A program made the position numbers and the translations under genes. The notes beneath the pieces are model-generated. The model did no database searches. It was given only the letters and a program-made list of their open reading frames with translations, and was not told where the DNA came from. 56,100 nucleotides of DNA. Origin: a virus. Taxonomy: Duplodnaviria > Caudoviricetes. How positions within the stretch are numbered: position 1 is the first letter of the stretch; every line of letters begins with the position of its first letter. Of the stretch, positions 1,790 through 41,832 are shown in pieces. The stretch is from IMG/VR virus record IMGVR_UViG_3300032397_000015, positions 1 to 56,100 of that record, one strand, 5' to 3'.

Positions 1790-3577
1790 TTAGAACTTCC
1801 CCAGGGTGATGTCCGCCGCCAGTTTCGCATAAACCAGGCTATGGAGGGCGTCATCCGGTTGGTCGATCGGATGGTCGTACATCATCGTTCGGGTCCGATC
1901 GTTATACTCGACGTACTCCGCCAGGATGTCTTTGGCGAACGGCTCGAACTCCTCCCACGCCGGGAACATGAAGTTCCCTTGCTTGATGTCACCGAAGAAC
2001 TGTGACAGGGCGGCGTTCCGGTTCACGATGAATTTGTAGGCGTTGGAATCCCAGCGCTTGCGCTCGCCCAGGTTGGCCGAGTAGGCGAACTGCATGACAC
2101 CGTCTCGTCCGCGACTCTTGAATAGACGGCTGTTCATGCCCCAGCCGTGACCCCAGTCGGCTCCGATGATCTCCACGTTCCAGTGCGCGCAGATGTGCTC
2201 GACGTCGGGCAGGATGAGCTCGGGGTCGACCTCCTTGCCGACGTACCGCTTCATCATGAAGGGCCAGAAGATGGCGTCGTTGATGTACGCACCGAGGGTC
2301 AGGACGGTCCAGGATGCAAACTTCTTGCGCCCCGAGTTGACCTCGCCTTCCTCTCGACCCTCGCCCCAATCGATGCCGGCAAAGATTCGCAGGCCGTTGT
2401 GGGACGGCCCTCTGGAATAGGTGAACTTGGAGCTGTCGTTGCCCTCGTACTTTTTGGATGGCCAGCAATTCTGCTGGATGTCCATGCGAGTGACTGGGGC
2501 TGAGGCGTTGTCGTAGGAGATGCCCAAGATCTCGTTGTTGAACTTGGACTCCGGCCACTTCTCATGGGGAAGGACGATCTCCGTGCGCCAGGCATCCTCC
2601 GACTGCTTCCACGGAACCATCAGCTGTGAGATGTGGTAGCCGATGTAGAACTCGTTGGGCGCGAAGCTGACCCACTGCCCTTGGGCTGGGTTGATCGCCT
2701 TGCCGCACTTGGAGCAGATGAGCCCCTTTTTGCCGATGCTGCGGGCATCTAGGTAGTTCCAGTAGCGACCGGCGTCCCCGCCAGCGCAGTCACAGGGAAC
2801 CATCCACTCGTTCTGGGTCGACCACTGCCAGTACTCCTCGAGCGTGTTGGAGAACGTCAGCGGCGTACCCGTGATCATCTCCTTGCCCGGAACGCCCATA
2901 GCCAGGCGGGACGCCGACAGCGACTGGCTGATGACCTTGATGTTGTCCTTGAGTAGGTCCTGGGCCTCATCGAAGAACACGCGACTGGCCGGGATGCCTC
3001 GAGCTCGAGCAGCCGTGAGGAAGGCGTAGCGCAGGAAGATGTACGAGCCGTTGGCCAGGGTCTTCTCGAAGACCTGATCGGTGACGCCCTTGCCGAAGAG
3101 GTACCGAGAGACGAACGGGGAGTCGGTCAGCGTCGGCCGCAGCTTCTCGTTGGAATACTGCCGCGTTTGCAATGCGGAGGGGGAGACATAGAGCGAGCGC
3201 CAGTGTGGGCGGATGATGGATTCCAAGATCTGCAGGTTGCAGACGGTCGTCGACTTAGCCACCTGGCGCGAACACTTCATCACCAACCGCTCGTCATCAT
3301 CGTTGTAGATGGGGAGCATGAAGGCGTGGTTGTCCAGCCTGAGCGGACGACCCAGGTGGTAGAGCACGGCTTGGGCGATGTCGCTCTTGCGACCCTTGAA
3401 CGTGGGGCGCTCCTTGCCCGGGCGCTCCATCTGCGTGAGCCGCGGCTCCCAGTCGTATTCGCCATTCCACTTGACGTCGTTCGAGAACGACGGCGGGTCG
3501 ATTTCCTTGCCGGTGAAATCGAACGGGTCGGCCTCGAGCTCGGCGTTGGGGTCGAGCTGACCCGGATCTTCCATCAC
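1790..3577 (-). CDS. terL: Terminase large subunit (lambda GpA-like)
   Basis: Walker A-like KCSRQVAKSTT, Walker B VFFDEAQD, Zn-ribbon CDC...CSKCG between domains, nuclease acidic motifs FAGIDWG and PDDALHS. Confidence 0.9.
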   Translation of the reverse strand: MMEDPGQLDPNAELEADPFDFTGKEIDPPSFSNDVKWNGEYDWEPRLTQMERPGKERPTFKGRKSDIAQAVLYHLGRPLRLDNHAFMLPIYNDDDERLVMKCSRQVAKSTTVCNLQILESIIRPHWRSLYVSPSALQTRQYSNEKLRPTLTDSPFVSRYLFGKGVTDQVFEKTLANGSYIFLRYAFLTAARARGIPASRVFFDEAQDLLKDNIKVISQSLSASRLAMGVPGKEMITGTPLTFSNTLEEYWQWSTQNEWMVPCDCAGGDAGRYWNYLDARSIGKKGLICSKCGKAINPAQGQWVSFAPNEFYIGYHISQLMVPWKQSEDAWRTEIVLPHEKWPESKFNNEILGISYDNASAPVTRMDIQQNCWPSKKYEGNDSSKFTYSRGPSHNGLRIFAGIDWGEGREEGEVNSGRKKFASWTVLTLGAYINDAIFWPFMMKRYVGKEVDPELILPDVEHICAHWNVEIIGADWGHGWGMNSRLFKSRGRDGVMQFAYSANLGERKRWDSNAYKFIVNRNAALSQFFGDIKQGNFMFPAWEEFEPFAKDILAEYVEYNDRTRTMMYDHPIDQPDDALHSLVYAKLAADITLGKF

Positions 3578-9148: not shown

Positions 9149-10234
9149 TTAGCCAACCTTGGCGCCGCGGTAACCGCGCTGCGGATTGTTCAAGCTCTTG
9201 ATCGTGTCCGAAAAGTAAGCTGACTTGCTCGGCGGCTTGGCTTTCGCCGTCTCCTTGGCCCTGGCCGATGGATTTGTATTGGGGCGAGTCGTCTTCGGTT
9301 TTGGGGCCGACATGCCCGTGTGCCAAGCCGCGCTGGCGGATGCGCGCAGCAGCCCGGGAGATTGCACCTCCTTGCCCGCAGTGGCAGCGGTCTTCTCGGC
9401 AGCCGCATCTCCGCCGCGCAAGGCGGCCAGCACCTTCTGAGCGATGAGAGTCGCCAGCATGGGGGTTGCTGCCGCCAGGGCATAGGTGCCGTAGGCGGGA
9501 AGCAGTTCTTTCGCGGTCTGCGCAACGCCGGGGCCGAATTTGCGAGCGCCGACCAGCGCGTTCTTCGTCGCCCTGGCCTCCTCTAGCAACTGCGGCACGG
9601 CTGTCGCCCCAACCAGCAGTGGGGCGTGGTCGCGCGCAAAGCCACGAGCATCGGTCTCGTCGTCCTTCGCCGCCGTGATGGCGTTCAACATTAAGCCAGC
9701 TCGCGCTGGCCCGCCGACCAACCTGACGGCCGCCCCGAAGTTCTGCCAGATATTGCGCAGCAGGGTGCTGCCGAGGATCGGCGAGGCGTGGCCGATCTCA
9801 TGCATCATCACCGGGACCGATCCCAGCCTGGTGACAATCTGCTCCTCGGCCAATCCCAGCGGAAGACCAAGTCTGTCTGACAGCTTCTTGGCCTCGGCCG
9901 GGTCCATATTCCTGGCTACCATCGGCATCCCAGGAAAGAACATCGCATTGCCAGGAACCCCGCCGGCCATCATCGGAGTCGTTACGCCTTTGCTAGCCGC
10001 AAAGTCTGTCAAGTCCTGTACTTCTTTGCGTGTAAAGGCTGAGAGCTGCTCCAGTGGAGTTCCTGTCACCTCCGTCACCGGACTCATGGCATTCCACCTG
10101 TCCGAGATCGCCCCTCCAAGGGCGCGCTGCCCCATCTTCCCAGCCTGCAGCGTTGCCAACATCGCCGCCACGGACGGCAGGGAGCTCCTCTGAAAGCTTG
10201 GCGCGGGTGCCGGTTTGTCGCTGTCGTCCGCCAT
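9149..10234 (-). CDS. Putative zinc metallopeptidase (HEXXH) with hydrophobic segments
   Basis: MMHEIGHAS plus downstream LLEEARAT (candidate third ligand Glu); TGATG coupling to the RNAP gene. Confidence 0.6.
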   Translation of the reverse strand: MADDSDKPAPAPSFQRSSLPSVAAMLATLQAGKMGQRALGGAISDRWNAMSPVTEVTGTPLEQLSAFTRKEVQDLTDFAASKGVTTPMMAGGVPGNAMFFPGMPMVARNMDPAEAKKLSDRLGLPLGLAEEQIVTRLGSVPVMMHEIGHASPILGSTLLRNIWQNFGAAVRLVGGPARAGLMLNAITAAKDDETDARGFARDHAPLLVGATAVPQLLEEARATKNALVGARKFGPGVAQTAKELLPAYGTYALAAATPMLATLIAQKVLAALRGGDAAAEKTAATAGKEVQSPGLLRASASAAWHTGMSAPKPKTTRPNTNPSARAKETAKAKPPSKSAYFSDTIKSLNNPQRGYRGAKVG

Positions 10235-13200
10235 CAGTAAACTCCCTCAGTCTTCGACCTGCCTGTTGGATCTTCTCCGAATTCAGCCCCATAGGCAAAG
10301 CCGGGGATGGGCGAGTACCCATGCAAGTCAGACTCGGCGCCACGTGCAGCGCCCTCGACAATGGCGGACTTCAGGCGTCGATAGCCCATCTGGCTCATCC
10401 AGTCGTCGCGCATCATGGGAATCTCCTGGATGCCCTTGAGGAAGGGGCGGTGGAGGATGGGCAGCGGTCCGGTCTCGACCTCCGTGAGTCCCGTACGCTC
10501 CAACAGCTTCTTGACCCGGTCGTTGATCACGGTCCCCTTGGGGACCCCGGGCACGTCCTCCTGGAGCGTCATGCCGTGGGCGTCTTCCAGACTCTTCTTG
10601 CCGAGCTTCTTGGCGTTGTAGTCCTCGACCACAGTCCAGGGCGCCACGTCGCCGGGAAGGAAGTCGCTGCCGCCGGGGTCCAGCACTCGAGTCGTATTTC
10701 CGACCGACCGCACGACTGTTTCGATGGCGCGCCGCTTCAGGTCGACACCCTGGCTGGCATAGGCAGACTGGATCTCGTTGGAGAGGTACTCCTGAGCGGC
10801 GCGCATCCCCTTGAGGCGAGCGAGCTCATCGGGCTGAGCCAGGCCCTTGGAGATGATGTCTCCCTTGGAGATCTGACTACCGACGCGAATCCTGTCCGAG
10901 TCCCACAGGTCGTTGGGGATGTAGTGATTCTTGCCATCGATGCTGACGTCCCTGCCGGTATCGCCTACCGACGACGTGACGCTATCGACCGTGCCATCGT
11001 TTTGCGCGAGGGCGGCCTTGCCCCGCTTGATCTCCGGCATCTTAAGCAGCTTGTCGATCTTGTCGTAGCCAGAGATAACGCCGCGAGTGCCGGAGATGCC
11101 ACCGGAGTGGAAGGTGCGCATCGTCATCTGGGTCAACGGTTCGGACATCGCCTGTCCGGAGGTGGCGCCAACGTTGTCGCCAATCGACGGCGACATCCCA
11201 TGCTCGTTGATCCCGTAGCACTTGGCGCAAACCCCCTTCGGCAGCCTACAGGTGATGGGCGAGCGGACGTCCACGGTCTTGATCTTGCGATCGCGCAACG
11301 TGCTCAGCAGGCCAGATGTCACCTGGCTGCCTGCATGAGCGACGACCTCGCCCTTGTACAGGATGTCCTTGGCGAGGAAGCGGTCCTCGACGTCCGACGA
11401 ATTGATGTCGACGTCGAGCCCCTCATGCGTGCCGCAGTCGTCCTTGGCGATGACCGTCGACACAGCCGAGGCCATGATGTCCTTGTTGAACTCGCCAGGC
11501 TTGCTGGTCTGGAGCTGCTTGTCGACGGCCGTGGCGCGAGCTCCATAGAGCGTGCTCCAGTAATCGGAGAACGGCAGCCCCTCCGAGAAGGAATTCATGA
11601 TCGGGAAGGGGGAGGCGTTGCCACGATGGTCGTCGACCATGAACGGCGTGGACACCGTCTGCTTGAGCTGGGTCATGTTGCCGCGCGCACCTGACCGGAC
11701 CATCAGATTCAGATTATTGGTCTGGGCGTTCAGGCCGGACGTCACAGCGGCGTCGAGCTGCTTGCCGGCGGCACCCATGATCTGTCGCCCCTCCTCGCGC
11801 TGGGCGGGATCTGACAGGTCTAGCTTGTTAAGCGCCTTGGTCGTCTGGTCGAAGATGCCTTGCTTGCCGGGGATCACGGGCGTCAAGTCTTTCATGCTGA
11901 CCGTGAAGCCTGTGCGGTAGGTGTGCTCGTCACCGAGCTCCTTCAGCTTGTCGAGCACCTTGCCGTAGTCGCGCGGCATGGTTTCGGCTAGATCCATGGT
12001 CAGCGCGCGCAGACCCTTCTTATCCAGTTCGACATCCTTGAACTTCTCCTGCATCGAGGCCGGAAGCAGCGCCGTGATCGCACCCCGCTTGGCCGGATCC
12101 TTCGACATCAGGAATAGCCCCAGGGCAGACTCATTCTGCGGCGTCATCATGATCTGCCCGGTGCCGGGGTTGTAGAGATTGTTGGATGGCAGCATCCGCT
12201 TCGCCTCCTCGACCGCATCCGGCAGCACGGGCACATGGACCGTCATGGCGTCGCCGTCGAAGTCGGCGTTGAAGCCCTTGACCACCAACGGCGGAATCTT
12301 GATGGCCTTGCCGTCGGTGATCTGCGGCATGAATGACATGATCGAGAACTTGTGGAGAGAGGGGGCGCGATTCAGGATGATCGGACGCTCCTTCATCTCG
12401 GCGTCGAGCGCGGCCCGTGCGCTGGGAGTGCGGTCCTTGACTTCCTTGGACGCCTCCGTCGGGGATTTACCGGCGGAATTGACCAATCGTCGCGTGATGA
12501 ACGGCTGGAAGATGTTCCAGGACATCTCTTCCGGTAGGCCCACCTCGTCCAACCCGAGCTTTGGCTCGGGAATGATGGTGCCGCGCCCGACCAGGTCTTG
12601 ATTGCGCCGCAGCACGCTCTTGATGAAGAAGCCTTCTTTGGCAGCCTTGTCTCCTTTGATCTGCCGGATGATGCCTTGAGGCACCCGCGACTTGGGGTAT
12701 TTGGCGATGGGATCACCCAGCCCATAGATGGCGGCGACGCCGTCGTACAGATTCTGACGAAGGTCCGACTTCGACGACTCAGGGATGTAGTCCACCCCCT
12801 TCTGCCAAGCCAGCTCGTTGTTGACCAGGCTGACGTCACGGTAGAGCGTGTTCAGTCCTGGATTTGAGATCTGACCGTCGTCGCTTTCCACGATCTGCCG
12901 GAACTGCGGGGGGATGATCGGAATCTTGCTCTGGACGTAGGCGTCCTCGGGGCGCACCCCCGTCTTCTTCAGAGCGTGCAGGTACTTCAGCTTCTTGTTC
13001 GCTTCATCGAGCTTCGCGGCGGTCTTGGACGTCTTGGCCTTGTCCGTCCACGTCTTGATATCGGCATCAACATCGATTCGGCTGAGCATCTTCTGGAAGG
13101 CGGGGCCTCCCGTCAGCCCCTTGTCTGCCCACTCTCCGGTGGCGGGATCGACAAACAGGTCTCCCTTGACCAAGCCCTTGTACTGCGTGTCCGAGATCCC

Positions 13201-16200
13201 CGTCAGCTTCTTGATCGGATTCTCGAAGACAGGGTTGGCGATGGGTTCTGAGAGCTGGATATGACCCCAGCGGTCACCGAGCTTGCCGCCAAAGATCTCC
13301 GGATCCATCAGCCCCCCGACCTCTTCGCGCAGGTCCTTGCCGCGCACGAAGATGGGCTCCTTGATAGCCCCCGAGCTCATGTTCGTGACCTCTTTGTCGG
13401 TCATCGGGTTGATGATCATCCTGGAGCCGTTGCGCTTGGTATTCACGCCTGCGCCGTTCAGGTATGCCTCGAATTTCTTGTACGCGAAGGTAGGCTGGGG
13501 CGGTGGGGCGATCTGTCCGCTCTTGTGGCCAGCCGACAGCCAGTTCCAAAAGTTCTCATTCTGAGAGCCCTTGTATGTCGCCATCTCGCGCAGGTTTGCC
13601 CGACTGCCGTGAGACAGCATCGAGTAGAAGGACAAGAGGTCCAGCGCCTTGGCGCCATCCTCGCCGCCTCTGAGAGGAGCGCGGTTGATGTCGTACTTTC
13701 CGTCGCTGCGGGCGGAAAACTGCGAGGTGGCCTGCTTGGCCAACTTGAGAACGTACTGCGGACCTACCAGCACATCGCCCAGCGGCTCCTTGCTGTGCGC
13801 ATCGAACAAGGTCTCGGTATCGGAAATCTTGTTCTTCGCCAGCTCAGCGGTCATGTCGCGGGCGTAGTCGGCACCCGTGAAGTTGTCGACGACGTACGGC
13901 TTTCCGTTCTTCTCGGCGATCTTGGCCGCTGCGGTCTCGAGGATCTGCGACGGGTTGATGCGCGTGACGATGCCGTGCGGATTTAGGAGGATGTCGACCT
14001 TGTTCGCCGTGCCATCAGCGTTCTGCGTATAGGGCGCTTCCCCGTCGGAAATGATCTTGGTGATGATGCCCTTCGCTCCGTGCCTGTTCGTGAGCTTGTC
14101 GCCAATCTGCGCTGGCTCGTTGGTCTTTACATAGACCTTCACCTTCTTGCCAGCCTTCACGACATCGACGACCGTCCCGTCGGCATCTCCGGTCCATTCC
14201 TCCATGTGGCCACGCCGAGGGTTCGTGCTCGGGGCGATCTTTTTCATCGCCAGGTATTCGGGGTCGTACTTGTTCTCACGCGTCCCCACCCAGAGCGGGT
14301 CGCCCTTCTGTAGAACCTGGCCCTTGCGGACGATGCCGTCGTCGTCCAGCTTGTCCTGCTGCTCCGGCGTCAGCGCTCCGGGCCTCCAGGCCATGAATGC
14401 GTCCTTGGAGAACGCATCGCCTTTGTCGGCAGAGACCGAATGCTCGTGCATGTGCTCGCTGGCAAGCTTCTTGGCCGCCGCCTCGGTGATGACGATGCCG
14501 TCCTCAAAGTTGTAGCCCTTATACGGGACATAGGCCGCCCGCAGGTTGGTGCCGATGGCGAGGGTCCCGTCGCGGGTGAAGTTGGAGTCGGCCAGCACGC
14601 CGCCCTCCTTGACCACATCGCCTGCGACGACGGTTGGGTCAGAGTGCAAAAATGACTTTCCGTTCAGCGGCAGATTGTTGTAGATCGGCTGCTCGACCAC
14701 TCCATCCTTAGTCCGGACGGTAATCCTGTTTGGAGTAACCTTCTCAACCACGCCGTCGGCCAACGACCTGACCGAGAACCCCTCGCCAATCGCATCCTCG
14801 ATGGTCCCCTTGCCGACCTTGACCTGAACCAGCGGCGCTTCGCGGCTAGTCAGCGGGATGGCCTGCTCGATCATCTTCGTAGCCATCTGCGCACGCACGC
14901 CCTGCGCCGACGCCAAGAACGGGATCGTGTTGGAGGCGATGGAGAACGCCTGCTTCGCGGACGAGAGCACTGCATCGACGTCGGACGCCTTCACCGACTG
15001 CATCTCGCCCTTGATCATGACCTTGACCTTGTCGGCGATGGGCTTGCCATTTCGATACTGGTCGGGGAACGCCACCACCATGTCTCGCATGTCAGACGGG
15101 CTGGCCCAGCTCTGAGTTCCGTCCTTCGGGTTGGTCACCCTGGTCTGCAGGTCCTCTTTGTCCTTCGACGTCCCCATCGGCAGGTTGAGCACGATGCCGA
15201 TGTTGCTGGAGTCGGGCGTGTGAATCGGGTCAATGAACCCCATGTGCGACGGATGAAGCGAGTGCTCCTCATCGCGAACTGCTCGCTCCGACTGAACCCC
15301 GCCCTCGCCAAGGATGGTGACCTTGGAGCTCCCGTTGATCATGTTGATCGGGTTGGTCTGGTCCGTCGTGTTGGCCAACGACGACTGGGTGAAGAAGCTG
15401 GTGAAGATGGAGCTCAGTTCGTTAGAGCTGACCAGCTTGGAGATGTCGGTAGGCGGAGACTTGCGATTGTTCAGGCGGTAGAAGATCTTCTTGCGCAGCT
15501 CGGACAGCTTCGGTGCGAGCTCGCCGGATTCCTGGATAAGGCGTTCGCCGATCAGGTCGGCGGGCCCCAAGACCTTCTTGTACTCAAGTGCCTCGCGGTC
15601 ATCGATCCCTCGCTGCCCCCTGGTCAGCTTGAGCAATTCCGATGACCCGTCGAGCAGCGCCTCTGGCCCTACCCTGTCGTAGCCCCTGCCGAGCGTGGCC
15701 TTGGTGACCTCAGGACGAATCTCTCCGTCTGATTCAAAGAACCCGTTGATGGCCTCGGCGGCCGCAGCAGGTGAGTCGTGCTTGGAGCGAGTAAAGTACT
15801 CGCCCGCCTTGAGCACGGCCTGCGTGGACTTCTTCTCGTTCAGCGCCTTGTTGACCTCGAGCACATCCACGCCCCACGCCTTGGACATTGCGGAATCAGA
15901 GACTCCGATCCTGGAAAGGATGGGATAGAGCGGCACCCCCGTACTATCCTTTCCACCCTTCATCAGCTTGAAGACGCCGCTGGCGTCGTCATATTTGATG
16001 TCGAAGGGGCGTCCGGCGATGTTGATCTCGGTCTTCTTCTCGCCGTTTTTCTTCTCGGTGACGTAGATGCCCGGCTTGCGGCGCAGCTGGTTCTGGACCT
16101 GGTAGTGCTTACCGTCGACAATGAAGCTACCCAGGTCGGTGGTCTTGGGCAGCGTGGCGATCTTCAGCTTGTTCGTCGACGACAGTACCTCTCCAGTCTT

Positions 16201-16434
16201 CCGGTCGACCAGGTCCATCGCCACGTAGACTGGGACGCCCCAGGTCCTGTCCTTACGGACTGCCTCGCGCTGCGACTCCCAGTCGGCTGAGTCTTTGTTG
16301 TCGTCTACCCATACGTTTTTGACCACGATCTTCCGGCCAGTGCCGGTGGCCTGGATGTCCAGGGCCTTCGAAAAGGACGAGACCACGTCCTTTTTGATCT
16401 TCTCGAACTGGCTGGCATGGTCAAACGGGTTCAT
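10234..16434 (-). CDS. rpoBC: DNA-directed RNA polymerase, fused beta-beta' single polypeptide (2066 aa)
   Basis: Beta motifs GSFIVDG, HPSHMGFIDPIHTPDSSNIG, GYNFEDG, GDKLTNRHGAKG, DILLNPHG. Beta' motifs GLMDPEIFG, WGHIQL, LNRAPSLH, catalytic NADFDGD (12250-12270), SGARG, RSPITC...CAKCYG, trigger loop EPLTQMTMRTFHSGG. All lie in one frame with no internal stop. Confidence 0.97.
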   Translation of the reverse strand: MNPFDHASQFEKIKKDVVSSFSKALDIQATGTGRKIVVKNVWVDDNKDSADWESQREAVRKDRTWGVPVYVAMDLVDRKTGEVLSSTNKLKIATLPKTTDLGSFIVDGKHYQVQNQLRRKPGIYVTEKKNGEKKTEINIAGRPFDIKYDDASGVFKLMKGGKDSTGVPLYPILSRIGVSDSAMSKAWGVDVLEVNKALNEKKSTQAVLKAGEYFTRSKHDSPAAAAEAINGFFESDGEIRPEVTKATLGRGYDRVGPEALLDGSSELLKLTRGQRGIDDREALEYKKVLGPADLIGERLIQESGELAPKLSELRKKIFYRLNNRKSPPTDISKLVSSNELSSIFTSFFTQSSLANTTDQTNPINMINGSSKVTILGEGGVQSERAVRDEEHSLHPSHMGFIDPIHTPDSSNIGIVLNLPMGTSKDKEDLQTRVTNPKDGTQSWASPSDMRDMVVAFPDQYRNGKPIADKVKVMIKGEMQSVKASDVDAVLSSAKQAFSIASNTIPFLASAQGVRAQMATKMIEQAIPLTSREAPLVQVKVGKGTIEDAIGEGFSVRSLADGVVEKVTPNRITVRTKDGVVEQPIYNNLPLNGKSFLHSDPTVVAGDVVKEGGVLADSNFTRDGTLAIGTNLRAAYVPYKGYNFEDGIVITEAAAKKLASEHMHEHSVSADKGDAFSKDAFMAWRPGALTPEQQDKLDDDGIVRKGQVLQKGDPLWVGTRENKYDPEYLAMKKIAPSTNPRRGHMEEWTGDADGTVVDVVKAGKKVKVYVKTNEPAQIGDKLTNRHGAKGIITKIISDGEAPYTQNADGTANKVDILLNPHGIVTRINPSQILETAAAKIAEKNGKPYVVDNFTGADYARDMTAELAKNKISDTETLFDAHSKEPLGDVLVGPQYVLKLAKQATSQFSARSDGKYDINRAPLRGGEDGAKALDLLSFYSMLSHGSRANLREMATYKGSQNENFWNWLSAGHKSGQIAPPPQPTFAYKKFEAYLNGAGVNTKRNGSRMIINPMTDKEVTNMSSGAIKEPIFVRGKDLREEVGGLMDPEIFGGKLGDRWGHIQLSEPIANPVFENPIKKLTGISDTQYKGLVKGDLFVDPATGEWADKGLTGGPAFQKMLSRIDVDADIKTWTDKAKTSKTAAKLDEANKKLKYLHALKKTGVRPEDAYVQSKIPIIPPQFRQIVESDDGQISNPGLNTLYRDVSLVNNELAWQKGVDYIPESSKSDLRQNLYDGVAAIYGLGDPIAKYPKSRVPQGIIRQIKGDKAAKEGFFIKSVLRRNQDLVGRGTIIPEPKLGLDEVGLPEEMSWNIFQPFITRRLVNSAGKSPTEASKEVKDRTPSARAALDAEMKERPIILNRAPSLHKFSIMSFMPQITDGKAIKIPPLVVKGFNADFDGDAMTVHVPVLPDAVEEAKRMLPSNNLYNPGTGQIMMTPQNESALGLFLMSKDPAKRGAITALLPASMQEKFKDVELDKKGLRALTMDLAETMPRDYGKVLDKLKELGDEHTYRTGFTVSMKDLTPVIPGKQGIFDQTTKALNKLDLSDPAQREEGRQIMGAAGKQLDAAVTSGLNAQTNNLNLMVRSGARGNMTQLKQTVSTPFMVDDHRGNASPFPIMNSFSEGLPFSDYWSTLYGARATAVDKQLQTSKPGEFNKDIMASAVSTVIAKDDCGTHEGLDVDINSSDVEDRFLAKDILYKGEVVAHAGSQVTSGLLSTLRDRKIKTVDVRSPITCRLPKGVCAKCYGINEHGMSPSIGDNVGATSGQAMSEPLTQMTMRTFHSGGISGTRGVISGYDKIDKLLKMPEIKRGKAALAQNDGTVDSVTSSVGDTGRDVSIDGKNHYIPNDLWDSDRIRVGSQISKGDIISKGLAQPDELARLKGMRAAQEYLSNEIQSAYASQGVDLKRRAIETVVRSVGNTTRVLDPGGSDFLPGDVAPWTVVEDYNAKKLGKKSLEDAHGMTLQEDVPGVPKGTVINDRVKKLLERTGLTEVETGPLPILHRPFLKGIQEIPMMRDDWMSQMGYRRLKSAIVEGAARGAESDLHGYSPIPGFAYGAEFGEDPTGRSKTEGVY

Positions 16435-16454
16435 TGGGCCACCTAACCCCCGCG

Positions 16455-16470
16455 GGCATAAGGATTTTGA
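16455..16470 (+). promoter_or_regulatory. Conserved GGCATAAG-N4-TTGA motif
   Basis: GGCATAAGGATTTTGA in the divergent gap between rpoBC and the 16550 island. Confidence 0.75.
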
Positions 16471-16549
16471 GAACAGAGCTTACCCGTAACCGTCGTCGGA
16501 TTGCTCCAACATCTCAACAATACTCAAGCATTCAGAGGAGGGCTACGCC

Positions 16550-16759
16550 ATGTACTTCTTTCCAGCAAGCTCAGGAGGCGCGAACGACGGACGCTCGTCA
16601 TTGGCGGGGGATGCCAAGAATCGTGTACTGATCGCGATCGTCGAGGCAAGCCTGTGGACGGTCGCCAGGGCGGCGGAGATGTGGCTGCTCTCGTCGGTGT
16701 TGATCAACCTGTCCGGCAGGCGTTCGTCGCGTAAATCTTCAAATCGAAACCAAGCATAG
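16550..16759 (+). CDS. Small hypothetical protein with hydrophobic segment
   Basis: 69 aa with GAGGAGG RBS. Confidence 0.6.
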   Translation: MYFFPASSGGANDGRSSLAGDAKNRVLIAIVEASLWTVARAAEMWLLSSVLINLSGRRSSRKSSNRNQA

Positions 16760-16773
16760 GAGGAGACCCAGGC

Positions 16774-17211
16774 ATGTATTTCTATCCAAGAAGGCCACCG
16801 TTGGCAGATGACGGTTCTGGCGGATTCGTCAGCAAGGTTCTAATGGGGCTATCCGCCACCGCGATGGTCCCGGCACACGGATTCATATTCCAGGGTCGAG
16901 GAGCGGTTGCTGCAGCGCCGAGCCCGCTGGGAATGTGGATGAGGGCGTTCCTGGGGGCGTGCGCCTGGGGATTCATGATTGCTGCGGGCAGCCTTGTCTA
17001 CAACCACTTCGTCAAGAAGTGGCAGTCGAGCGGCCTGCCGATGCTCCCTATCGCTGCACTGGTGTCAGGAGCGTCAACGATACAGCAAAGCATGGGGCAG
17101 GCTCCGAGCCAGCAGCAGGCGTCGGCCGGCGGGCTCGGTAGCGGGGCACCTCAATTCACCCGAGCGCGCCAGCCCGGGCAAACATCATTCCTCGAGGAGT
17201 ACGAGGGCTAG
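16774..17211 (+). CDS. Hypothetical membrane protein
   Basis: 145 aa, AGGAGG RBS, hydrophobic stretches such as AFLGACAWGFMIAAGSLVY. Confidence 0.7.
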   Translation: MYFYPRRPPLADDGSGGFVSKVLMGLSATAMVPAHGFIFQGRGAVAAAPSPLGMWMRAFLGACAWGFMIAAGSLVYNHFVKKWQSSGLPMLPIAALVSGASTIQQSMGQAPSQQQASAGGLGSGAPQFTRARQPGQTSFLEEYEG

Positions 17212-18509: not shown

Positions 18510-18804
18510 TGCTGTCTCCCTTGTCGAGTTTCGGTTTCTTGATCCAGTAGTGAACCACAAGAAAGACTTCTTCGGTCGTTGTGACGGTCGCATCTTCACC
18601 GTTGCCGTCGCGGACCGTAGTCTTGCGCGTGTACTCACGGATCTGCTCAATGTAGATACCCTGGGAGGCGTCGTTGGCATTGGTGCGCAGCAGCGCGTAC
18701 TTGCCCATGTCGTCGTCGTCGAACATGTTGTAACGCCCGACGATGAACTCGCCGAGGTTCTTACCGCCTGTGGCGACCTTGACGTCACTGACCTTGGCAG
18801 CCAT
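18454..18804 (-). CDS. Hypothetical protein
   Basis: 116 aa; coupled to the portal stop. Confidence 0.7.
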   Translation of the reverse strand: MAAKVSDVKVATGGKNLGEFIVGRYNMFDDDDMGKYALLRTNANDASQGIYIEQIREYTRKTTVRDGNGEDATVTTTEEVFLVVHYWIKKPKLDKGDSNADVKEARRDWAKERSVG

Positions 18805-21755
18805 TAGACAGCTCCTCCGCCGCGGCGAGGCGGCGCCATCTGGGGCGCGGGCTTGTTGCGATCTTCAGCCTGCCCCGCGGTTTCGCCAGTCTGCATCTGA
18901 GCCAGTAGTTGCTCGACCAGGCGAGCCATGTTGGGCATCTTCTGGCGAAGGTCATTCAGGACACCCTCGCGCTGGTCGGGTGGCAATTGGGCGATGCGGT
19001 TGGCCCAATTCTTAGCCACCTTGGACGCATCCATCTGCACGACCTGGCCGCCGGCCGAGGTGCCCGTCTCGCCCTCCACGTTGGCCGGCAGCTGCGCCGC
19101 GCCCTGGAGGGCGGCTTGCTGTCCCATCTGCTGATCAGCGGCCTGCTGGTCAGCGGAGGGTGCGTCCTGCGCCATCTGGGGCTGACCCTCCTGCGGCTGC
19201 GCCTGCGGCTGCTGGTCGCCCTGCTGCATCTGGCCCTGGCCCTGCTCGCCTTGGCCAGGCTGACCGCCCGACTGGCCACCGGACGCTTCGTTCATGGCCT
19301 CCTGGGCACGGGCCTGGTACTTGGCCTGGACGATAGACGCCTCGCCCTGCGCCTCGCTCTGGGCCTTCATGGTGACGGCCTGGATGCGGTTACGCTGGTC
19401 GGCTTCCTTTTCGATCATCTTGAGCTCGTCGTCGTAATCGAACCCAAGCTCGGTGAGCATCGTGTGGTCGGAGATCTTGTTGGCAGCATTGAGCTGGATG
19501 ACGATCTGCTTGCGCTGGATATCGTCCGCCATCTTGAACTCGGTGAAGCCGATTTCGATGTCGGGTAGACCCAGGTACAGCCGGATGCGATTCTTCGCCC
19601 AGTTGACGAAACGGAGCAGGAGGCGGCGGTGCATGAGGAAGTGGTTCTCCAGGGTCCGCAGGGAGACCGAGGAGCCGGACCAGGATAGGCCGCCGAACAC
19701 GAACTCCAGCGGCACGCCCATGCCGCCGGTGATCTCCTTGTTCGTGACCTCGATCTCCGGGCCGAGCAGCAAGGCGCGGCCATCGCCGCCCAGGCGCTCG
19801 AAGCCGAGTGGCACGGCCACGACCGAGATGTAGTTCGGGTCGGTGCGCCACTTCCGGATTTCGTTCTGGACGGTGCCTTGCCAGCTCGACAGGTTGACGT
19901 GCTGATAGGGGTCCTGTTGCGCGTTGGCCTGCGGAAAGATGAACTCGAGCGGCATGATCCGCTGGAGCGCAATCGCCTCCTGAGCACGACGCAGGACGTA
20001 CAGATAAAACATGCGGCCCATCGAGTGGATGATGAGCGGCTTGCCCCAGCCCATGTCCGCCTCGGCCAGGGTCGGGCGCTTGAAGTGAAAGAGGTTTTGG
20101 TCGGAGAGGGCGATGTCACGCTTCTGCTTGAGCGCCTGGAGAAAGATCTCCGGAATGTCGACCAGGATGGCCCGCTCGCCGCCCTGGATGGCCTTCTGGA
20201 TCTTGTTAGGAATCTTGTAGCGATACTTCGACCGACCGGTGATCGGGTTGTAGTGGATGTCGATGTTCTTCGGATCCCAGCGAACGAAGTTGATGCCGGA
20301 CCGATCTCTCAGCGGCTTATCAACGATCTTGGCGACGCAGCTGATGCCGCAGTCCTGGCACTTGATGTTGAAGCCGAAGTTCTGGAACTTGTACTCGACC
20401 GCGGGATCTGACAGGCGGTGCAGAGACTTGCATCCAGTGCACTGCAACCAGCGCACGAACGGCAGGTTGATCGAGATGAAGGCGTTGCCGTAGCAATTCC
20501 CGGTCAGGACGCCGTTGTCGATAGTGAAGGTGTGGGTCTCCATCTCGACGCAGCAGAACACCTCGTCGACGAGTCCGGTCTCCCTAACGTCCTTGATGTG
20601 GACATATGAGCCATACCTGGTCGGCTTATAGTTCTCTTCGAAATTGGACCGATGACGGGATAGTAGAAAGTCCTGCGGAAGCAGGTACTGCTTGAACAGC
20701 GAAAGGAAGTGCATCGCCCCTTCGTATTCGTAGACCTTCTCGCCGTACTTGAAAGACGTCGATCTCTCGTATCCGCGAACCTGGCCGGCGATCATGCCAA
20801 TGCGTGGCAACTGATCGGCCACAGCGTCCAGGGTGGCCTTGGCCTTCTGGGTTAGTACCGCACAGCCGTTGACATCAACGGATCCGTCGGCGGCCAGGAA
20901 CCCGCACAGGAATCCGTACCAATAGCTGGCTGAGTTGGCGTTTGGAGGGAGCTCTTTGTAAGCAATCGGCAGCCCGTGAACCATGACGGTGCCGTCGGCA
21001 ACCTTGATAGCCGGCGACCCATGGCCCTCGAAATACTTGAGCATCTCGAGGTCTTTTTCGCCGTAGAAGTACGCCTTCGCCTGCTTGCCATCGTTATAGA
21101 GGCAGCCGTCGCCAAACACGAAACCGTGACGGACGCCTTCGTAGAAGTCTGCGTTCTGCTCGGGACGTGGTGCGACATTGCGCAGGATTCGCTTACCGGA
21201 AAGCTCCGTCGTCGGAACCCTCACTGTCTTGCCGTTGGAGTTGGTCACCACCCATTGATGCTCAGGGGTCGCCAGGACAGTCCGCCCGTCGTTAAACTCA
21301 ACCTCCAAAAGCTTTTGCCTGCCGAATGATTTGAACTCGGCGGGGCGATAGGTGCCGCCATCCGACAGGACATCCACCGTCTGGCCGGCCAGCTCTCGGA
21401 GCTTGAAAACCCCGTTCCTGGTAGTCACCTTGGTGTCGCCGTGGAAGCAGAAGAAATCGAGGCCGATTTCGATCAGGAAGGGCTTGAGGTTGAGGGTGTC
21501 CTCCATCAACTCCTTCCACCCGTCGCGGACGTGCTTCTCCTCGGCGTTGTAGACAAAGTCGGTGACCGGGTACTCGGCCATCTTCGTGACGACCGACCCG
21601 ATCATCGGGTCCTTGTAGAAGAAGTAGGCGCACCACCGGAACAGTTCCTTGACTGTCGGCGGCATGTAGGTCTGCGCAATGTCGAAGAACGGGGACGGGT
21701 ATACCGTTCCCCGCCTCCGATCTGCACCGCCCTGACCTAGCGAGATATCGGACAT
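18804..21755 (-). CDS. Portal protein interrupted by an intein; Gln-rich C-terminus
   Basis: Spliced junction GLDFF|CYGNAF matches the portal D..YGNAF motif; also RWDPKNI, WGKPLI, ITGGMGVP and LLRFVNWAKNRI. Confidence 0.85.
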   Translation of the reverse strand: MSDISLGQGGADRRRGTVYPSPFFDIAQTYMPPTVKELFRWCAYFFYKDPMIGSVVTKMAEYPVTDFVYNAEEKHVRDGWKELMEDTLNLKPFLIEIGLDFFCFHGDTKVTTRNGVFKLRELAGQTVDVLSDGGTYRPAEFKSFGRQKLLEVEFNDGRTVLATPEHQWVVTNSNGKTVRVPTTELSGKRILRNVAPRPEQNADFYEGVRHGFVFGDGCLYNDGKQAKAYFYGEKDLEMLKYFEGHGSPAIKVADGTVMVHGLPIAYKELPPNANSASYWYGFLCGFLAADGSVDVNGCAVLTQKAKATLDAVADQLPRIGMIAGQVRGYERSTSFKYGEKVYEYEGAMHFLSLFKQYLLPQDFLLSRHRSNFEENYKPTRYGSYVHIKDVRETGLVDEVFCCVEMETHTFTIDNGVLTGNCYGNAFISINLPFVRWLQCTGCKSLHRLSDPAVEYKFQNFGFNIKCQDCGISCVAKIVDKPLRDRSGINFVRWDPKNIDIHYNPITGRSKYRYKIPNKIQKAIQGGERAILVDIPEIFLQALKQKRDIALSDQNLFHFKRPTLAEADMGWGKPLIIHSMGRMFYLYVLRRAQEAIALQRIMPLEFIFPQANAQQDPYQHVNLSSWQGTVQNEIRKWRTDPNYISVVAVPLGFERLGGDGRALLLGPEIEVTNKEITGGMGVPLEFVFGGLSWSGSSVSLRTLENHFLMHRRLLLRFVNWAKNRIRLYLGLPDIEIGFTEFKMADDIQRKQIVIQLNAANKISDHTMLTELGFDYDDELKMIEKEADQRNRIQAVTMKAQSEAQGEASIVQAKYQARAQEAMNEASGGQSGGQPGQGEQGQGQMQQGDQQPQAQPQEGQPQMAQDAPSADQQAADQQMGQQAALQGAAQLPANVEGETGTSAGGQVVQMDASKVAKNWANRIAQLPPDQREGVLNDLRQKMPNMARLVEQLLAQMQTGETAGQAEDRNKPAPQMAPPRRGGGAV
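20496..21449 (-). mobile_element. Intein (318 aa) with LAGLIDADG/DOD homing endonuclease in portal
   Basis: Begins CFHGDTKV, block B ATPEHQW, endonuclease motifs HGFVFGDG and GFLAADGSV, ends HTFTIDNGVLTGN followed by Cys+1. Confidence 0.92.
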
Positions 21756-36159: not shown

Positions 36160-36458
36160 CGTGCGGCCATGTACCAGCGGTTGTACTTGTTGCGATCAAT
36201 CGGGTCCCTGGCGCCGGTGACTGACCCCTGGGCGCCCGCCACGATCTGTGACACGACGTCGCGTTCGTTGCCGATCCGCGACGAGGCCCTGCCGGGAATG
36301 CTTACCAACGCGTACGGCACGGCGCCGGCGCCCATCATGCCGGCCGGGGCCGAATTGGTGTTCATGCTAGAGGAGGTCTCGGTCTCCATGGCACGCTTCA
36401 CCATGGCGTTAACCGCCGACAGCTTCACCAGTTCGTCTACAAAGCTCACGAGGTTCAT
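36156..36458 (-). CDS. Small hypothetical protein with FVDELVKLSA / VKRA leader
   Basis: 100 aa, overlapping neighbours at both ends. Confidence 0.65.
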   Translation of the reverse strand: MNLVSFVDELVKLSAVNAMVKRAMETETSSSMNTNSAPAGMMGAGAVPYALVSIPGRASSRIGNERDVVSQIVAGAQGSVTGARDPIDRNKYNRWYMAAR

Positions 36459-40953: not shown

Positions 40954-41832
40954 CTAGCGCTCCACGTTGGACTGACGATAGTAGTAGTCGAGCTTCTTTT
41001 CGATCTGCTTCTTGAGTCCGCGGACCTTCTGCGGGGACATGTTCAGGGCCTTGCCCAGCTGCAGCGGATCTTCTATGACGGGCTTGCCGAAGCCGCTGAA
41101 CGTGTGCTCCAGGATGAGCTGCTGGTCCGGATTGAGCGATCCGTGCAGGAAGGCTGCCTGCTGCTCGACCATCGAGTTGCCGGCCAGGGTGCCCTCGTGT
41201 CCGGCGCTCTCAGCCAGGAAGTCGCTGCGCAGCTCACGGCGAAGCGTGCCGACCATCTTCGGCGTGACCGTCTTCTGACGAAGCGCGGACAGGTCGGGCA
41301 TGGAGATCAGGACGTCGTCTGCCAGCTCCGCGTCGGAGGGCGGCCGGCCGTGTATCTCGGAGAGCTCGGCTTCGCGCTGCTTGAGCGTGCCGATCAGCCA
41401 GGAGCGATCTTCCGGGATGCGCCCGATGTTCGAGTACCGCTGCATGTAGCGGTCCATCTGTCGACCCAGGCCGTAGGTGATGTGAGTCGACAGCTGGGCG
41501 CCGCGAGTCGGATCGTAGGTGTCGATCGCCTTGACGTACCGCCGCATGATCTGGCCCTTGATCGCGGCCTTCGGCAAGTTCGAGGATGCGACGTACCTGT
41601 TCGTGGCGGAGTTGATGAGTGGCTGGTGGCTGTTCAAGAGCCAGCTGAAGTCTTCGGGGTTCGGGTTGGCGCGCCAGCGCTGCCAGGACTCCATCTCCTG
41701 TTGCTTGAGGTCGTCACGCGAGATCCCCTCAGCGGCCGCCTGCTTGGTCAGCCACTCCTCGAGCTCGCGCTCTAGATCTTCCTCAACCTGTGAATCCACG
41801 GGCGTTGGCCAATTCCTCTCGGTATGCCTCAA
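40954..41832 (-). CDS. RNA polymerase sigma70-family factor (group 3, SigF/FliA-like); start may be GTG 41799
   Basis: Region 2 KAIDTYDPTRGAQLSTHITYGLGRQMDRY...GRIP; region 3 IHGRPPSDAELAD; region 4 LNPDQQLILE...LGKALNMSPQKVRGLKKQIEKKL. Confidence 0.9.
   Translation of the reverse strand: MRHTERNWPTPVDSQVEEDLERELEEWLTKQAAAEGISRDDLKQQEMESWQRWRANPNPEDFSWLLNSHQPLINSATNRYVASSNLPKAAIKGQIMRRYVKAIDTYDPTRGAQLSTHITYGLGRQMDRYMQRYSNIGRIPEDRSWLIGTLKQREAELSEIHGRPPSDAELADDVLISMPDLSALRQKTVTPKMVGTLRRELRSDFLAESAGHEGTLAGNSMVEQQAAFLHGSLNPDQQLILEHTFSGFGKPVIEDPLQLGKALNMSPQKVRGLKKQIEKKLDYYYRQSNVER

Follow-up and report, generated by a model that had tools for sequence, protein, structure and literature searches.

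A phage-encoded RNA polymerase of bacterial type with beta and beta' fused in one chain

We found that a tailed-phage genome fragment encodes the two large subunits of a bacterial-type RNA polymerase (RNAP), beta and beta', as one polypeptide of 2066 aa. The fragment is an IMG/VR virus sequence of 56,100 nucleotides (here called the window) and represents about 31% of a genome of about 180 kb. The fusion is real and under purifying selection, and it is how the enzyme is normally built in a large phage clade. We consider it likely that the fusion is conserved and complete and that it forms a bacterial-type, single-chain catalytic core that depends on a phage sigma factor. With alpha, omega, the zinc-binding domain of beta', and lineage-specific insertions all missing, such a single chain would be a natural minimal form of the bacterial-type core.

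Both large subunits in one open reading frame

The open reading frame (ORF) begins with ATG and contains no internal stop codons. Its parts are as follows.

10234..16434, minus strand: fused beta-beta' RNA polymerase ORF, 2066 aa, stop codon at 10234-10236
13435..16434, minus strand: beta part, aa 1-1000, with Rpb2_3, Rpb2_6, and the catalytic GDK...RHG.KG motif, ending in the C-terminal helix FAYKKFEAYLNGAGVNTK
13420..13434, minus strand: linker (junction), aa 1001-1005 (RNGSR), which connects the C terminus of beta to the N terminus of beta'
10237..13419, minus strand: beta' part, aa 1006-2066, with clamp helices at about aa 1194-1240 and with bridge helix and trigger loop present
12250..12270, minus strand: catalytic NADFDGD motif, aa 1389-1395, in the beta' part

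A Pfam domain scan, which the preliminary description of this DNA had proposed as a check, returned beta (Rpb2) domains followed by beta' (Rpb1) domains.

aa 357-418: Rpb2_3, E 1e-10
aa 560-923: Rpb2_6, E 1e-47
aa 1121-1212: Rpb1_1, below the cutoff
aa 1348-1414: Rpb1_2, above the cutoff
aa 1564-1594: Rpb1_4, below the cutoff
aa 1619-1920: Rpb1_5, above the cutoff

The linker is placed at aa 1001-1005 because the end of the beta part, FAYKKFEAYLNGAGVNTK (aa 983-1000, nt 13488-13435), stops at aa 1000 and the beta' start, MIINPMTDKEV, begins at aa 1006 (nt 13419). In an alignment with Salmonella rpoB and rpoC, the phage chain is about 28% identical to the bacterial enzyme, with the beta C-terminal helix at phage aa 983-1004 and beta' resuming at about residue 17. 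The chain matches bacterial beta' in the PDB (E 1e-109), and its alignment runs nearly from end to end. The preliminary description had claimed that a single 2066-aa ORF holds the catalytic elements of both large subunits, joined through a few residues near 13420-13440. The ORF check, the Pfam scan, and the motif alignment bear out the first point; the linker bears out the second, and the terminal sequences quoted for the two subunits lie where they had been placed.

The lysine-bearing GDK...RHG.KG motif at aa 778-788 aligns with Salmonella beta 1060-1080. The three aspartates of NADFDGD (D1391, D1393, and D1395) are invariant in 30/30 aligned family members, as are H1776, G1778, and G1779 of the beta' part in the family alignment, and a second zinc site (C1667, C1729, C1736, and C1739) is kept in at least 90% of family sequences. 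The fused chain retains all catalytic elements. Because the catalytic residues are invariant, we rejected an inactive, purely structural protein.

Structure prediction, another of the proposed checks, gave AlphaFold2 (AF2) models in which both halves resemble their bacterial counterparts. The beta half (aa 1-1003; pLDDT, 88.5) matched bacterial beta chains in Foldseek with TMq values of 0.74 to 0.79, the best matches being bacterial or plastid beta. For the beta' half (aa 1004-2066; pLDDT, 89.7; pTM, 0.84), the values were 0.80 to 0.86, and the best matches were all bacterial beta'. All 50 Foldseek matches listed for each half were bacterial or plastid RNAP chains. Each half is thus predicted to adopt the bacterial beta or beta' fold.

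Several parts of the bacterial enzyme are missing. The zinc-binding domain of beta' is built on four cysteines around E. coli residues 70-88. This N-terminal domain is absent from the phage chain: Salmonella beta' 75-97 is unmatched, and aa 1006-1090 contain no cysteine. In the Salmonella alignment, beta' residues 516-571 are deleted and beta residues 3-24 are missing, and the insertions of the E. coli type are missing as well. The enzyme had been described as roughly 700 aa smaller than that of E. coli. The size holds, as the chain is 683 aa shorter than Salmonella beta plus beta' (1342 + 1407 = 2749 aa), but most of the difference consists of insertions of E. coli-like lineages. Compared with the smallest sampled bacterial pairs (1060 + 1218 and 1079 + 1192 aa, counted stop to stop), the saving is about 200 aa.

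The rifampicin pocket is also altered: of 101 family members, 76 have G in place of H526 and 98 have T in place of S531. Since these residues are unlike the bacterial ones, phage transcription should be insensitive to rifampicin. If the chain works with one small sigma factor, the pair would make a two-gene, orthogonal, and probably rifampicin-insensitive transcription system.

Gene neighborhood and sigma factor

The window carries genes for the large terminase subunit (TerL), a portal, and a baseplate wedge protein. Two of these flank the polymerase gene.

18804..21755, minus strand: portal gene, 983 aa, upstream of the polymerase, with an intein-like insert at about aa 105-412
1790..3577, minus strand: large terminase subunit, downstream of the polymerase

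The portal gene lies upstream on the same strand in 68 of 82 family loci, and TerL lies downstream on the same strand in 53 of 82. The position of the polymerase between portal and large terminase is conserved across the family. Most of the 27 neighboring ORFs searched against PHROGs and Pfam had no family, and the ESM Atlas held no usable match for a conserved 760-aa downstream protein. Neither tRNA genes nor Rfam families were found in the window. A scan for sigma-70 promoters between 9000 and 18900 gave no sites where 1.9 were expected, a result that is uninformative for a phage-specific sigma factor.

A translationally coupled ORF of 361 aa (9149-10234) adjoins the polymerase gene. Counterparts occur in just 9 of 82 family loci. 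The ORF is thus no general polymerase partner, and we rejected it as an accessory polymerase subunit.

The window also contains a gene of the sigma-70 family, which the preliminary description had overlooked.

40954..41832, minus strand: sigma-70-family gene P0121, 292 aa from a TTG start, candidate initiation factor

In database gene calls, P0121 has 281 aa and starts near 41799. All 49 matches in a PDB sequence search were sigma factors, the best being SigA (E 8.7e-7), aligned across regions 2 to 4. A P0121 homologue is present in all five complete or near-complete relatives, and at least 10 of the 98 homologues found are on contigs equal in size to listed polymerase contigs. In the mechanism that we propose, this phage sigma-70-family protein, coinherited with the polymerase, would supply promoter recognition and bind the beta' clamp helices. 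Complex prediction for the sigma factor and beta' aa 1004-1463 gave a score of 0.77, compared with 0.00 for the best of three controls; among solved complexes, 58 of 80 attained this mark, and among mismatched pairs, 2 of 110 did. At least 40% of contacts agreed between runs, the partner pLDDT was at least 71, and in the predicted interface sigma residues 73-89 and 121-129 face the clamp helices at beta' aa 1187-1228. The model speaks for likeness rather than binding, and its pass may reflect memory of solved sigma/beta' complexes; as a textbook pair, it does not distinguish a phage core from a host core. P0121 could instead redirect the host core enzyme.

Cultured relatives and possible virion packaging

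The only cultured relatives found, 4 of 65 phage records at a query coverage of at least 80%, are Salmonella phage Arash (181 kb) and Vibrio phages D69 (187 kb), D181, and D148. As in the window, their beta-to-beta' junction lies inside one coding sequence (in Arash, gp206 of 1525 aa), the portal gene is upstream, and the same sigma factor is present. They differ in having an identity of only about 31 to 34% and a beta' that is split after about aa 1434-1445. Several genes occupy the 4.8-kb gap in Arash, whereas the Vibrio phages have small ORFs or a homing endonuclease there. The products are annotated "beta subunit" or "hypothetical protein," and the fusion goes unmentioned in the available text of the Arash paper (PMC10585845). 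With tblastn, the polymerase was the only match of the window proteins to Arash positions 139000-160000, and megablast of the polymerase gene against phage records gave no match.

The available text on the Arash virion (PMC10585845) reports Gp206, which comprises beta and the N-terminal half of beta', as the most-detected protein (3516 spectra), Gp216 with 1210 spectra, and the sigma factor Gp10 at 100% coverage. P0121 has its Arash homologue in Gp10. The position of the polymerase gene in the head and packaging module, together with the Arash virion orthologues of polymerase and sigma, suggests that the enzyme is probably made late and packaged; Arash, with its split polymerase gene, is only about 31 to 34% identical to the phage chain. 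Under this mechanism, one and the same enzyme would enter the cell along with the DNA, transcribe the early genes, and act at later stages with further phage sigma factors. We give packaging of the fused polymerase in the virion an even chance. More tentatively, the chain and its dedicated sigma factor may constitute a two-polypeptide holoenzyme without alpha or omega that is packed in the capsid and injected with the DNA. Selection might then have favored fusion because one chain can be transferred and can refold with no need for an assembly platform. If true, this would be the first virion RNA polymerase known to depend on a sigma factor, and no smaller self-sufficient polymerase of bacterial type would be known.

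It is also possible, though somewhat doubtful, that the polymerase is not packaged but made after infection, running middle and late transcription with phage sigma factors while the host RNAP transcribes the early genes. The presence of one polymerase gene per genome (5/5 complete or near-complete relatives) along with several sigma genes in relatives fits such a program, as does the chain itself, which in the Salmonella alignment has no N-terminal extension usable as a capsid-targeting signal. The Arash virion list also includes obviously nonstructural enzymes (ribonucleotide reductases, RNA ligases, and a primase), and its authors note that abundant infection-stage enzymes may be contaminants of the preparation (PMC10585845, available text). 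Against synthesis solely after infection stand the conserved portal-terminase position on the structural-gene strand, the top spectral count of Gp206 in Arash virions, and the orthologous sigma factor found there too.

Alpha and omega

The preliminary description had noted no alpha or omega gene in the window, which is 31% of the genome, and the observation extends beyond it. Searches with Pfam models found alpha (PF01000) in 0/5 and omega (PF01192) in 0/5 complete or near-complete relatives, with controls positive in 14/14 genomes; because only Pfam models were used, a very divergent analogue would be missed. In the single-chain core that we favor, the covalent join of beta and beta' would replace the assembly platform provided by the alpha dimer, and omega would likewise be dispensed with.

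Alternatively, the fused chain might assemble with the host alpha dimer and omega into a hybrid enzyme. The fused beta-beta' of Helicobacter assembles with its own alpha, the phage fold is bacterial in type throughout, and the absence of phage-encoded alpha and omega fits borrowing as well as doing without. We nevertheless consider a hybrid unlikely. The clade is very divergent, at about 28% identity to the bacterial enzyme, and its phages come from many habitats and presumably infect many different hosts. Parts of beta' that may touch alpha (residues 516-571 and the zinc-binding domain) are deleted. Polymerases of the phiKZ type, moreover, are described as having no stable binding to host alpha or omega (PMC13282480, available text).

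The fusion across the family

A family search returned 1,070 proteins at an E value of 1e-3 or below, of which the best 120, query included, were examined. Among these, 101 are 2000-2112 aa long, 17 are 2358-2853 aa long owing to inserts, and 2 are shorter. The junction sequence is conserved across the 101 full-length proteins. In IMG/VR, at least 545 of 599 candidate stretches encode relatives, and 64 of 81 family loci contain one stop-free ORF of 1900-2150 aa. Every member examined is fused at the same junction (101/120 proteins, 64/81 loci, and the two split cultured lineages). The inserts of the 17 long members are inteins in catalytic motifs, 10 of them at NADFDGD, which means that the single chain must be translated and spliced to work.

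Contigs from sediment runs X1, X2, and X4 cover positions 13265-13813 with no indels at the junction. Third codon positions account for 16 of 18 listed differences in the X4 contig and 9 of 15 in the X2 contig. This comparison used contigs rather than raw reads over a 2-kb stretch, parts of which are without cover in X2 to X4. Among the runs listed as containing the sequence, none was of RNA.

Phylogenies separated the phage sequences from bacteria. In a FastTree analysis of 94 rows by 1,730 columns, all 64 bacterial rows fell on one side of a branch with support of 100, and IQ-TREE under LG+C20 (35 rows by 1,498 columns) recovered the same split with an SH-aLRT of 100. Nesting within a bacterial clade, which the preliminary description had named as evidence against its reading, was not seen. 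As far as these alignments reach, the phage clade stands apart from the sampled bacteria (64 rpoBC pairs); besides the phages, the trees contain only bacteria, without an archaeal or eukaryotic outgroup, the search pattern biased the bacterial sample, and there are long branches that meet. The fused state is relevant to the question of whether so deep-branching a clade informs early polymerase architecture.

It is highly improbable that assembly or binning errors produced the long ORF, or that it is an ordinary bacterial rpoB-rpoC pair, recently captured from a host or present as contamination. Two family members are in metagenome-assembled genomes labeled cyanobacterium and Bacteroidales bacterium, but those contigs (162 and 204 kb) are of phage-genome size. 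The same junction recurs in hundreds of independent assemblies and is spanned in contigs from other runs, the ORF is flanked by terminase, portal, and baseplate genes, two of the relatives are complete and carry terminal repeats, and the clade is separate from all 64 bacterial rows. On these grounds, we rejected an assembly artifact, bacterial contamination, and recent host capture. The Pfam domains, the predicted fold, the trees, and the phage context support the earlier reading, in which a phage carries a naturally fused beta-beta' of cellular (bacterial) type.

Relation to described polymerases

Fusions of rpoB and rpoC are known from Helicobacter and Wolbachia, where beta is followed by beta' in one polypeptide and the join exploits the closeness of the beta C terminus and the beta' N terminus. 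Those fusions are chromosomal, occur in cells with their own alpha and omega, and yield much larger proteins. The phage clade differs from them in lying outside the sampled bacteria and in lacking the zinc-binding domain.

By its described features, the clade is most likely the published mReC lineage (multimeric-RNAP-encoding Caudovirales; Weinheimer & Aylward 2020, PMC7481178). The main text of that paper describes tailed-phage contigs from IMG/VR and metagenomes, some of more than 100 kb, with polymerase genes among structural genes, an NADFDGD motif, a clade apart from bacteria, and beta and beta' near enough to the cellular subunits for COG and Pfam detection; all of this resembles what we found. 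Here, a single ORF has matches of at least 800 aa to beta and beta', NADxDGD, and hallmark genes nearby, and the polymerase is apart from its cellular homologues in a sample consisting of bacteria. PF03237, reported for TerL in part of the mReC contigs (PMC7481178), occurred in 3/5 relatives and had no match in the window. The mReC major capsid family (PF07068) was found in neither the window nor any of five relatives, but its control was positive nowhere, so this result is uninformative.

The phage group itself has thus probably been described before, and novelty is reduced because the clade is very probably mReC (PMC7481178) and has a cultured relative in Arash (PMC10585845). The main text of the mReC paper describes two subunits, applies "fused" or "fusion" only to crAssphage, does not contain the word "sigma," and presents no absence of alpha or omega, dedicated sigma factor, or virion hypothesis (PMC7481178). 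Among open-access papers and bioRxiv, supplements aside, we found no mention of a beta-beta' fusion in the mReC lineage, and the literature searched held no experiment on a full-length fused member. The fused enzyme offers a clean object for studies of assembly and structure. The family is large and has cultured members. It may represent a third route, alongside the N4 and phiKZ types, by which phages import their own transcription machinery.

Enzymes of the phiKZ/AR9 type share with the fused chain two double-psi beta-barrel domains, homology to beta and beta', and the lack of alpha and omega, and one of their polymerase sets is packaged in the virion (PMC7598289, PMC7824862, and PMC13282480, available texts). 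As described there, they consist of four to five polypeptides in two sets (virion and nonvirion), have no sigma-70-family factor, and are very divergent, whereas the phage enzyme studied here has one chain, one set (5/5), a sigma-70 homologue, and strong Pfam and PDB matches. The single ORF, single set, and sigma homologue led us to reject a split enzyme of the phiKZ type. The crAss-like gp66 and YonO likewise carry both barrels on one large polypeptide, and gp66 is reported to be packaged in the virion (10.1101/2020.03.07.982082, available text). These proteins have no recognizable similarity to COG0085 or COG0086, according to the main text of PMC7481178; the phage chain, in contrast, matches bacterial beta' so strongly that a divergent enzyme of the crAss/YonO type was rejected.

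A single-chain polymerase with a conserved junction

The polymerase gene (10234-16434, minus strand) is a single open reading frame (ORF) of 2066 amino acids (aa) that begins with ATG and is uninterrupted by stops. Pfam placed beta domains in its first half (Rpb2_3, aa 357-418; Rpb2_6, aa 560-923, E 1e-47) and beta' domains in its second (Rpb1_2, aa 1348-1414; Rpb1_5, aa 1619-1920; and, below the cut-off, Rpb1_1 at aa 1121-1212 and Rpb1_4). Its PHROGs matches were two families of unknown function, consisting of separate beta-like and beta'-like phage proteins. The two peptides that the preliminary description had quoted from either side of the join were located at aa 983-1000 and from aa 1006. 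The join therefore lies at aa 1001-1005 (nt 13434-13420), where that description had put it.

We aligned the window protein and 100 full-length relatives with RpoB and RpoC of Salmonella, which were translations of a bacterial contig that contaminates the phage collection. The C-terminal helix of beta aligned to FAYKKFEAYLNGAGVNTKRNGS of the fused polymerase, and beta' starts right after it, from about residue 17 of Salmonella beta'. Across the 101 family sequences (2000-2112 aa), the junction was as conserved as its surroundings, and a variable linker was absent. All or part of the stretch was found in four sediment-metagenome runs (X1 to X4, X1 possibly being the source). Logan contigs, as distinct from raw reads, from X1, X2, and X4 were aligned to 12400-14400 and spanned the junction without indels. 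By our own count, 16 of 18 differences in X4 and 9 of 15 in X2 fell at third codon positions. The natural fusion proposed from the sequence is real and had been correctly interpreted.

A large family with inserts at conserved motifs

Searching a collection of 5.8 billion proteins at E <= 1e-3 gave 1070 matches to the fused polymerase. Among the best 120 of these (query included), identity ranged from 37 to 100%; 101 proteins were 2000-2112 aa long, 17 were 2358-2853 aa, and 2 were shorter. These 120 came from JGI, ENA, Logan, and NCBI assemblies, on contigs of up to 203 kb. At least 545 IMG/VR stretches, among 599 candidates listed, encode a relative. One stop-free ORF of 1900-2150 aa was present in 64 of the 81 family loci examined; the remainder had inserts or an ORF truncated at the contig end.

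The extra length of the 17 long relatives (P0023, P0030, P0044, P0054, P0059, P0060, P0066, P0071, P0076, P0078, P0083, P0088, P0089, P0091, P0092, P0099, and P0113) consists of inserts at conserved motifs, and most carry the precomputed Pfam labels Intein_splicing and LAGLIDADG_3. Two of them have two inserts and one has three, so that the site counts sum to more than 17.

Insert sites in the long relatives
NADFDGD, about aa 1395: 10
Near aa 409: 3
Trigger loop, about aa 1774: 3
Near aa 782, 822, and 950: 1 each

The portal gene of the window (18804-21755, minus strand) encodes 983 aa owing to an insert at about aa 105-412, with weak matches to Intein_splicing and LAGLIDADG_3. Its flanks align to the portals of Salmonella phage Arash and Vibrio phage D69, both of which are without the insert.

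Fold and missing segments

In a sequence search of the PDB, the best 60 matches were all bacterial beta' chains, down to E 8e-109. Structure prediction gave a pLDDT of 88.5 and a pTM of 0.83 for the beta half (aa 1-1003) and 89.7 and 0.84 for the beta' half (aa 1004-2066). Confidence in the beta half was low just in the last 100 residues, which in real enzymes pack on beta'. Foldseek TMq reached 0.79 (beta half) and 0.86 (beta' half), and for both halves all 50 listed matches were bacterial or plastid chains. Over 1958 aligned columns, the protein was 28% identical to Salmonella. The catalytic elements were invariant or nearly so: the aspartates of NADFDGD, the lysine motif of beta, MRTFH.GG in the trigger loop, and the second zinc site.

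Relative to Salmonella, missing segments of 12 aa or more sum to 624 aa; at that same cut-off, the phage protein has a single extra segment, aa 1961-1998. The large gaps are presumably the E. coli lineage-specific insertions SI1, SI2, beta-i11, and SI3.

Segments missing relative to Salmonella
beta 3-24
Patches of beta 195-404
beta 932-1046
beta 1123-1176
beta' 75-148, including the four-cysteine zinc-binding domain
beta' 516-571
beta' 705-718
Patches of beta' 959-1196
beta' 1366-1384

The preliminary description put the enzyme at roughly 700 aa less than the E. coli pair. The smallest sampled bacterial pairs, from the candidate phyla radiation, measure 1060+1218 and 1079+1192 aa as stop-to-stop ORFs, and the real saving is therefore about 200 aa rather than 700.

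Rifampicin binding is governed by a set of pocket positions, at which H526 is replaced by G in 76 of 101 members and S531 by T in 98 of 101; Q513, F514, and R529 are also altered relative to the bacterial residues. Judging from these substitutions, the phage enzyme would be insensitive to rifampicin.

Relation to cellular and published polymerases

A prokaryote scan with one genome per species returned 80 loci. Two were family members (L097 and L098). Their contigs, of 162 and 204 kb, had been assigned to a Leptolyngbyaceae (cyanobacterial) MAG and to a Bacteroidales MAG; they are probably entire phage genomes caught up in the binning, which could hint at their hosts. A distinct single ORF of 1566 aa (L099, 155-4852) came from an uncultured-bacterium MAG, on a contig of 7 kb. 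At 27% identity, it takes in most of beta' together with the C-terminal half of beta, and it may represent another fused lineage. The other 77 loci were ordinary rpoB-rpoC pairs, 25-30% identical.

For the trees, the 62 pairs with two clean ORFs were kept and 15 fragmented ones dropped; Salmonella, a Staphylococcus contig, 28 fused phage proteins, and 2 split cultured forms were added. In the FastTree result (94 rows, 1730 columns), a branch with a support of 100 had every one of the 64 bacterial rows on the same side, and IQ-TREE (LG+C20+F+G4; 35 rows, 1498 columns) recovered the identical split (SH-aLRT, 100). Within these outgroup-free trees, in which long branches meet and the bacterial sample is biased by the search pattern, the phage clade was not nested in any sampled phylum.

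Weinheimer and Aylward described 97 contigs of multimeric-RNAP-encoding Caudovirales (mReC) from IMG/VR and metagenomes, with cellular-like beta and beta' that cluster separately from those of cells, and with polymerase genes situated among structural genes (PMC7481178). Our family matches mReC in all features compared except the MCP and TerL families, which were undecided, and the gene very probably belongs to this large published clade. The main text of that study applies "fused" or "fusion" to crAssphage only (PMC7481178), and neither the reviews by Sokolova et al. and by Iyer et al. nor a jumbo-phage review of 2026 mention a fused, sigma-using phage enzyme. Nor did a literature search, covering open-access papers and preprints, find such an enzyme described. 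What seems to be unpublished is the single-chain architecture, the absence of alpha, omega, and the zinc-binding domain, the co-inherited sigma, and the fixed position between the portal and terminase genes.

Genome context

The record is a linear IMG/VR virus estimated by CheckV to be 31% complete, which implies a genome of about 180 kb. Most other window ORFs examined had no match.

Assigned genes in the window besides the polymerase gene
1790-3577, minus strand, large terminase
18804-21755, minus strand, portal with intein-like insert
36455-38518, minus strand, baseplate wedge protein
40954-41832, minus strand, sigma-like gene
52434-54416, plus strand (opposite to the polymerase), SNF2-family helicase

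Same-strand neighbors of the polymerase gene were surveyed in 82 family loci, with flanks of up to 10 kb. Given these conserved neighbors, the polymerase gene is a constant member of the head and packaging module.

Same-strand neighbors in 82 family loci
Upstream, portal: 68
Upstream, 338-aa protein: 46
Upstream, 380-aa protein: 43
Downstream, 760-aa protein: 64
Downstream, TerL: 53

The 760-aa downstream protein (4465-6747, minus strand) had no Pfam or PHROGs match and no usable Atlas match. A 361-aa ORF (9149-10234, minus strand) begins with an ATG that shares one base with the polymerase stop codon; this overlap suggests translational coupling to the polymerase gene. The ORF had no family match and was present in just 9 of the 82 loci. 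Upstream of the polymerase start lies a 774-nt stretch (16435-17207) lacking a convincing same-strand ORF, its sole ORF being one of 145 aa on the plus strand; Rfam families, tRNAs, and sigma-70-type promoters were sought there and none was found.

A sigma factor in the absence of alpha and omega

Five complete or near-complete relatives were compared: Arash, D69, two IMG/VR genomes with terminal repeats (189 and 198 kb), and one 93% complete genome. Each has exactly one polymerase gene. Alpha (PF01000) and omega (PF01192) were found in none of the five, with controls detected in 14 of 14 genomes, and Sigma70_r2 matches occurred in four.

The 292-aa ORF at 40954-41832 (P0121) belongs by its sequence to the sigma-70 family: each of its 49 PDB matches was a sigma factor, the best being SigA (E 8.7e-7), with regions 2-4 aligned. 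Homologues were present in all five relatives. Among its 98 database homologues, at least 10 are on contigs equal in length to contigs of the polymerase list. A complex prediction of P0121 with beta' aa 1004-1463 passed with a score of 0.77 (best of three controls, 0.00), a mark that 58 of 80 solved complexes attain, as do 2 of 110 mismatched pairs. At least 40% of contacts agreed between runs, and partner pLDDT was at least 71. The predicted interface sets the clamp helices (aa 1187-1228) against sigma residues 73-89 and 121-129. This pass indicates likeness and may merely echo the sigma/beta' complexes already solved; phage and host cores are not distinguishable by it. We favor a mechanism in which the single chain would assemble independently of alpha and omega, depend on sigma, and probably be carried in the virion. 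The architecture of the chain, its conservation, and its fold are established by the analysis; how it assembles, uses sigma, is packaged, and resists rifampicin is inferred.

Cultured relatives and virions

A tblastn search of 50,697 phage records matched 65, four of which cover at least 80% of the query: the cultured Vibrio phages D69, D181, and D148 (91%) and one bacterial contaminant contig. Arash is the other cultured relative (67% cover in its best place). In all four cultured phages, a CDS of about 1525 aa covers beta plus the N-terminal half of beta', and a separate gene encodes the C-terminal half of beta'. They therefore share the beta-beta' junction with the window protein, and the split of beta', after about aa 1434-1445 (window protein numbering), is secondary. 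The latter coincides with the family's missing E. coli beta' 516-571. The second gene lies 4.8 kb away in Arash, with several genes in the gap, and is preceded by small ORFs or a homing endonuclease in the Vibrio phages.

Parts of the split genes
Arash: L001 5824-10401 and L177 442-2262
Vibrio phage D69: L002 3836-8419 and 9058-10887

As reported for the Arash virion proteome, Gp206 was the most-detected protein (3516 spectra), Gp216 gave 1210 spectra, sigma Gp10 had 100% coverage, and helicase Gp217 was detected too; the authors noted that particles might be contaminated by abundant infection enzymes (PMC10585845). Gp10 (11892-12596) is homologous to the window sigma P0121. The SNF2 helicase of the window sits near the end of the structural block. 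In Arash, the gene for the virion-detected helicase, at most a possible homologue of it, adjoins that for the C-terminal half of beta'.
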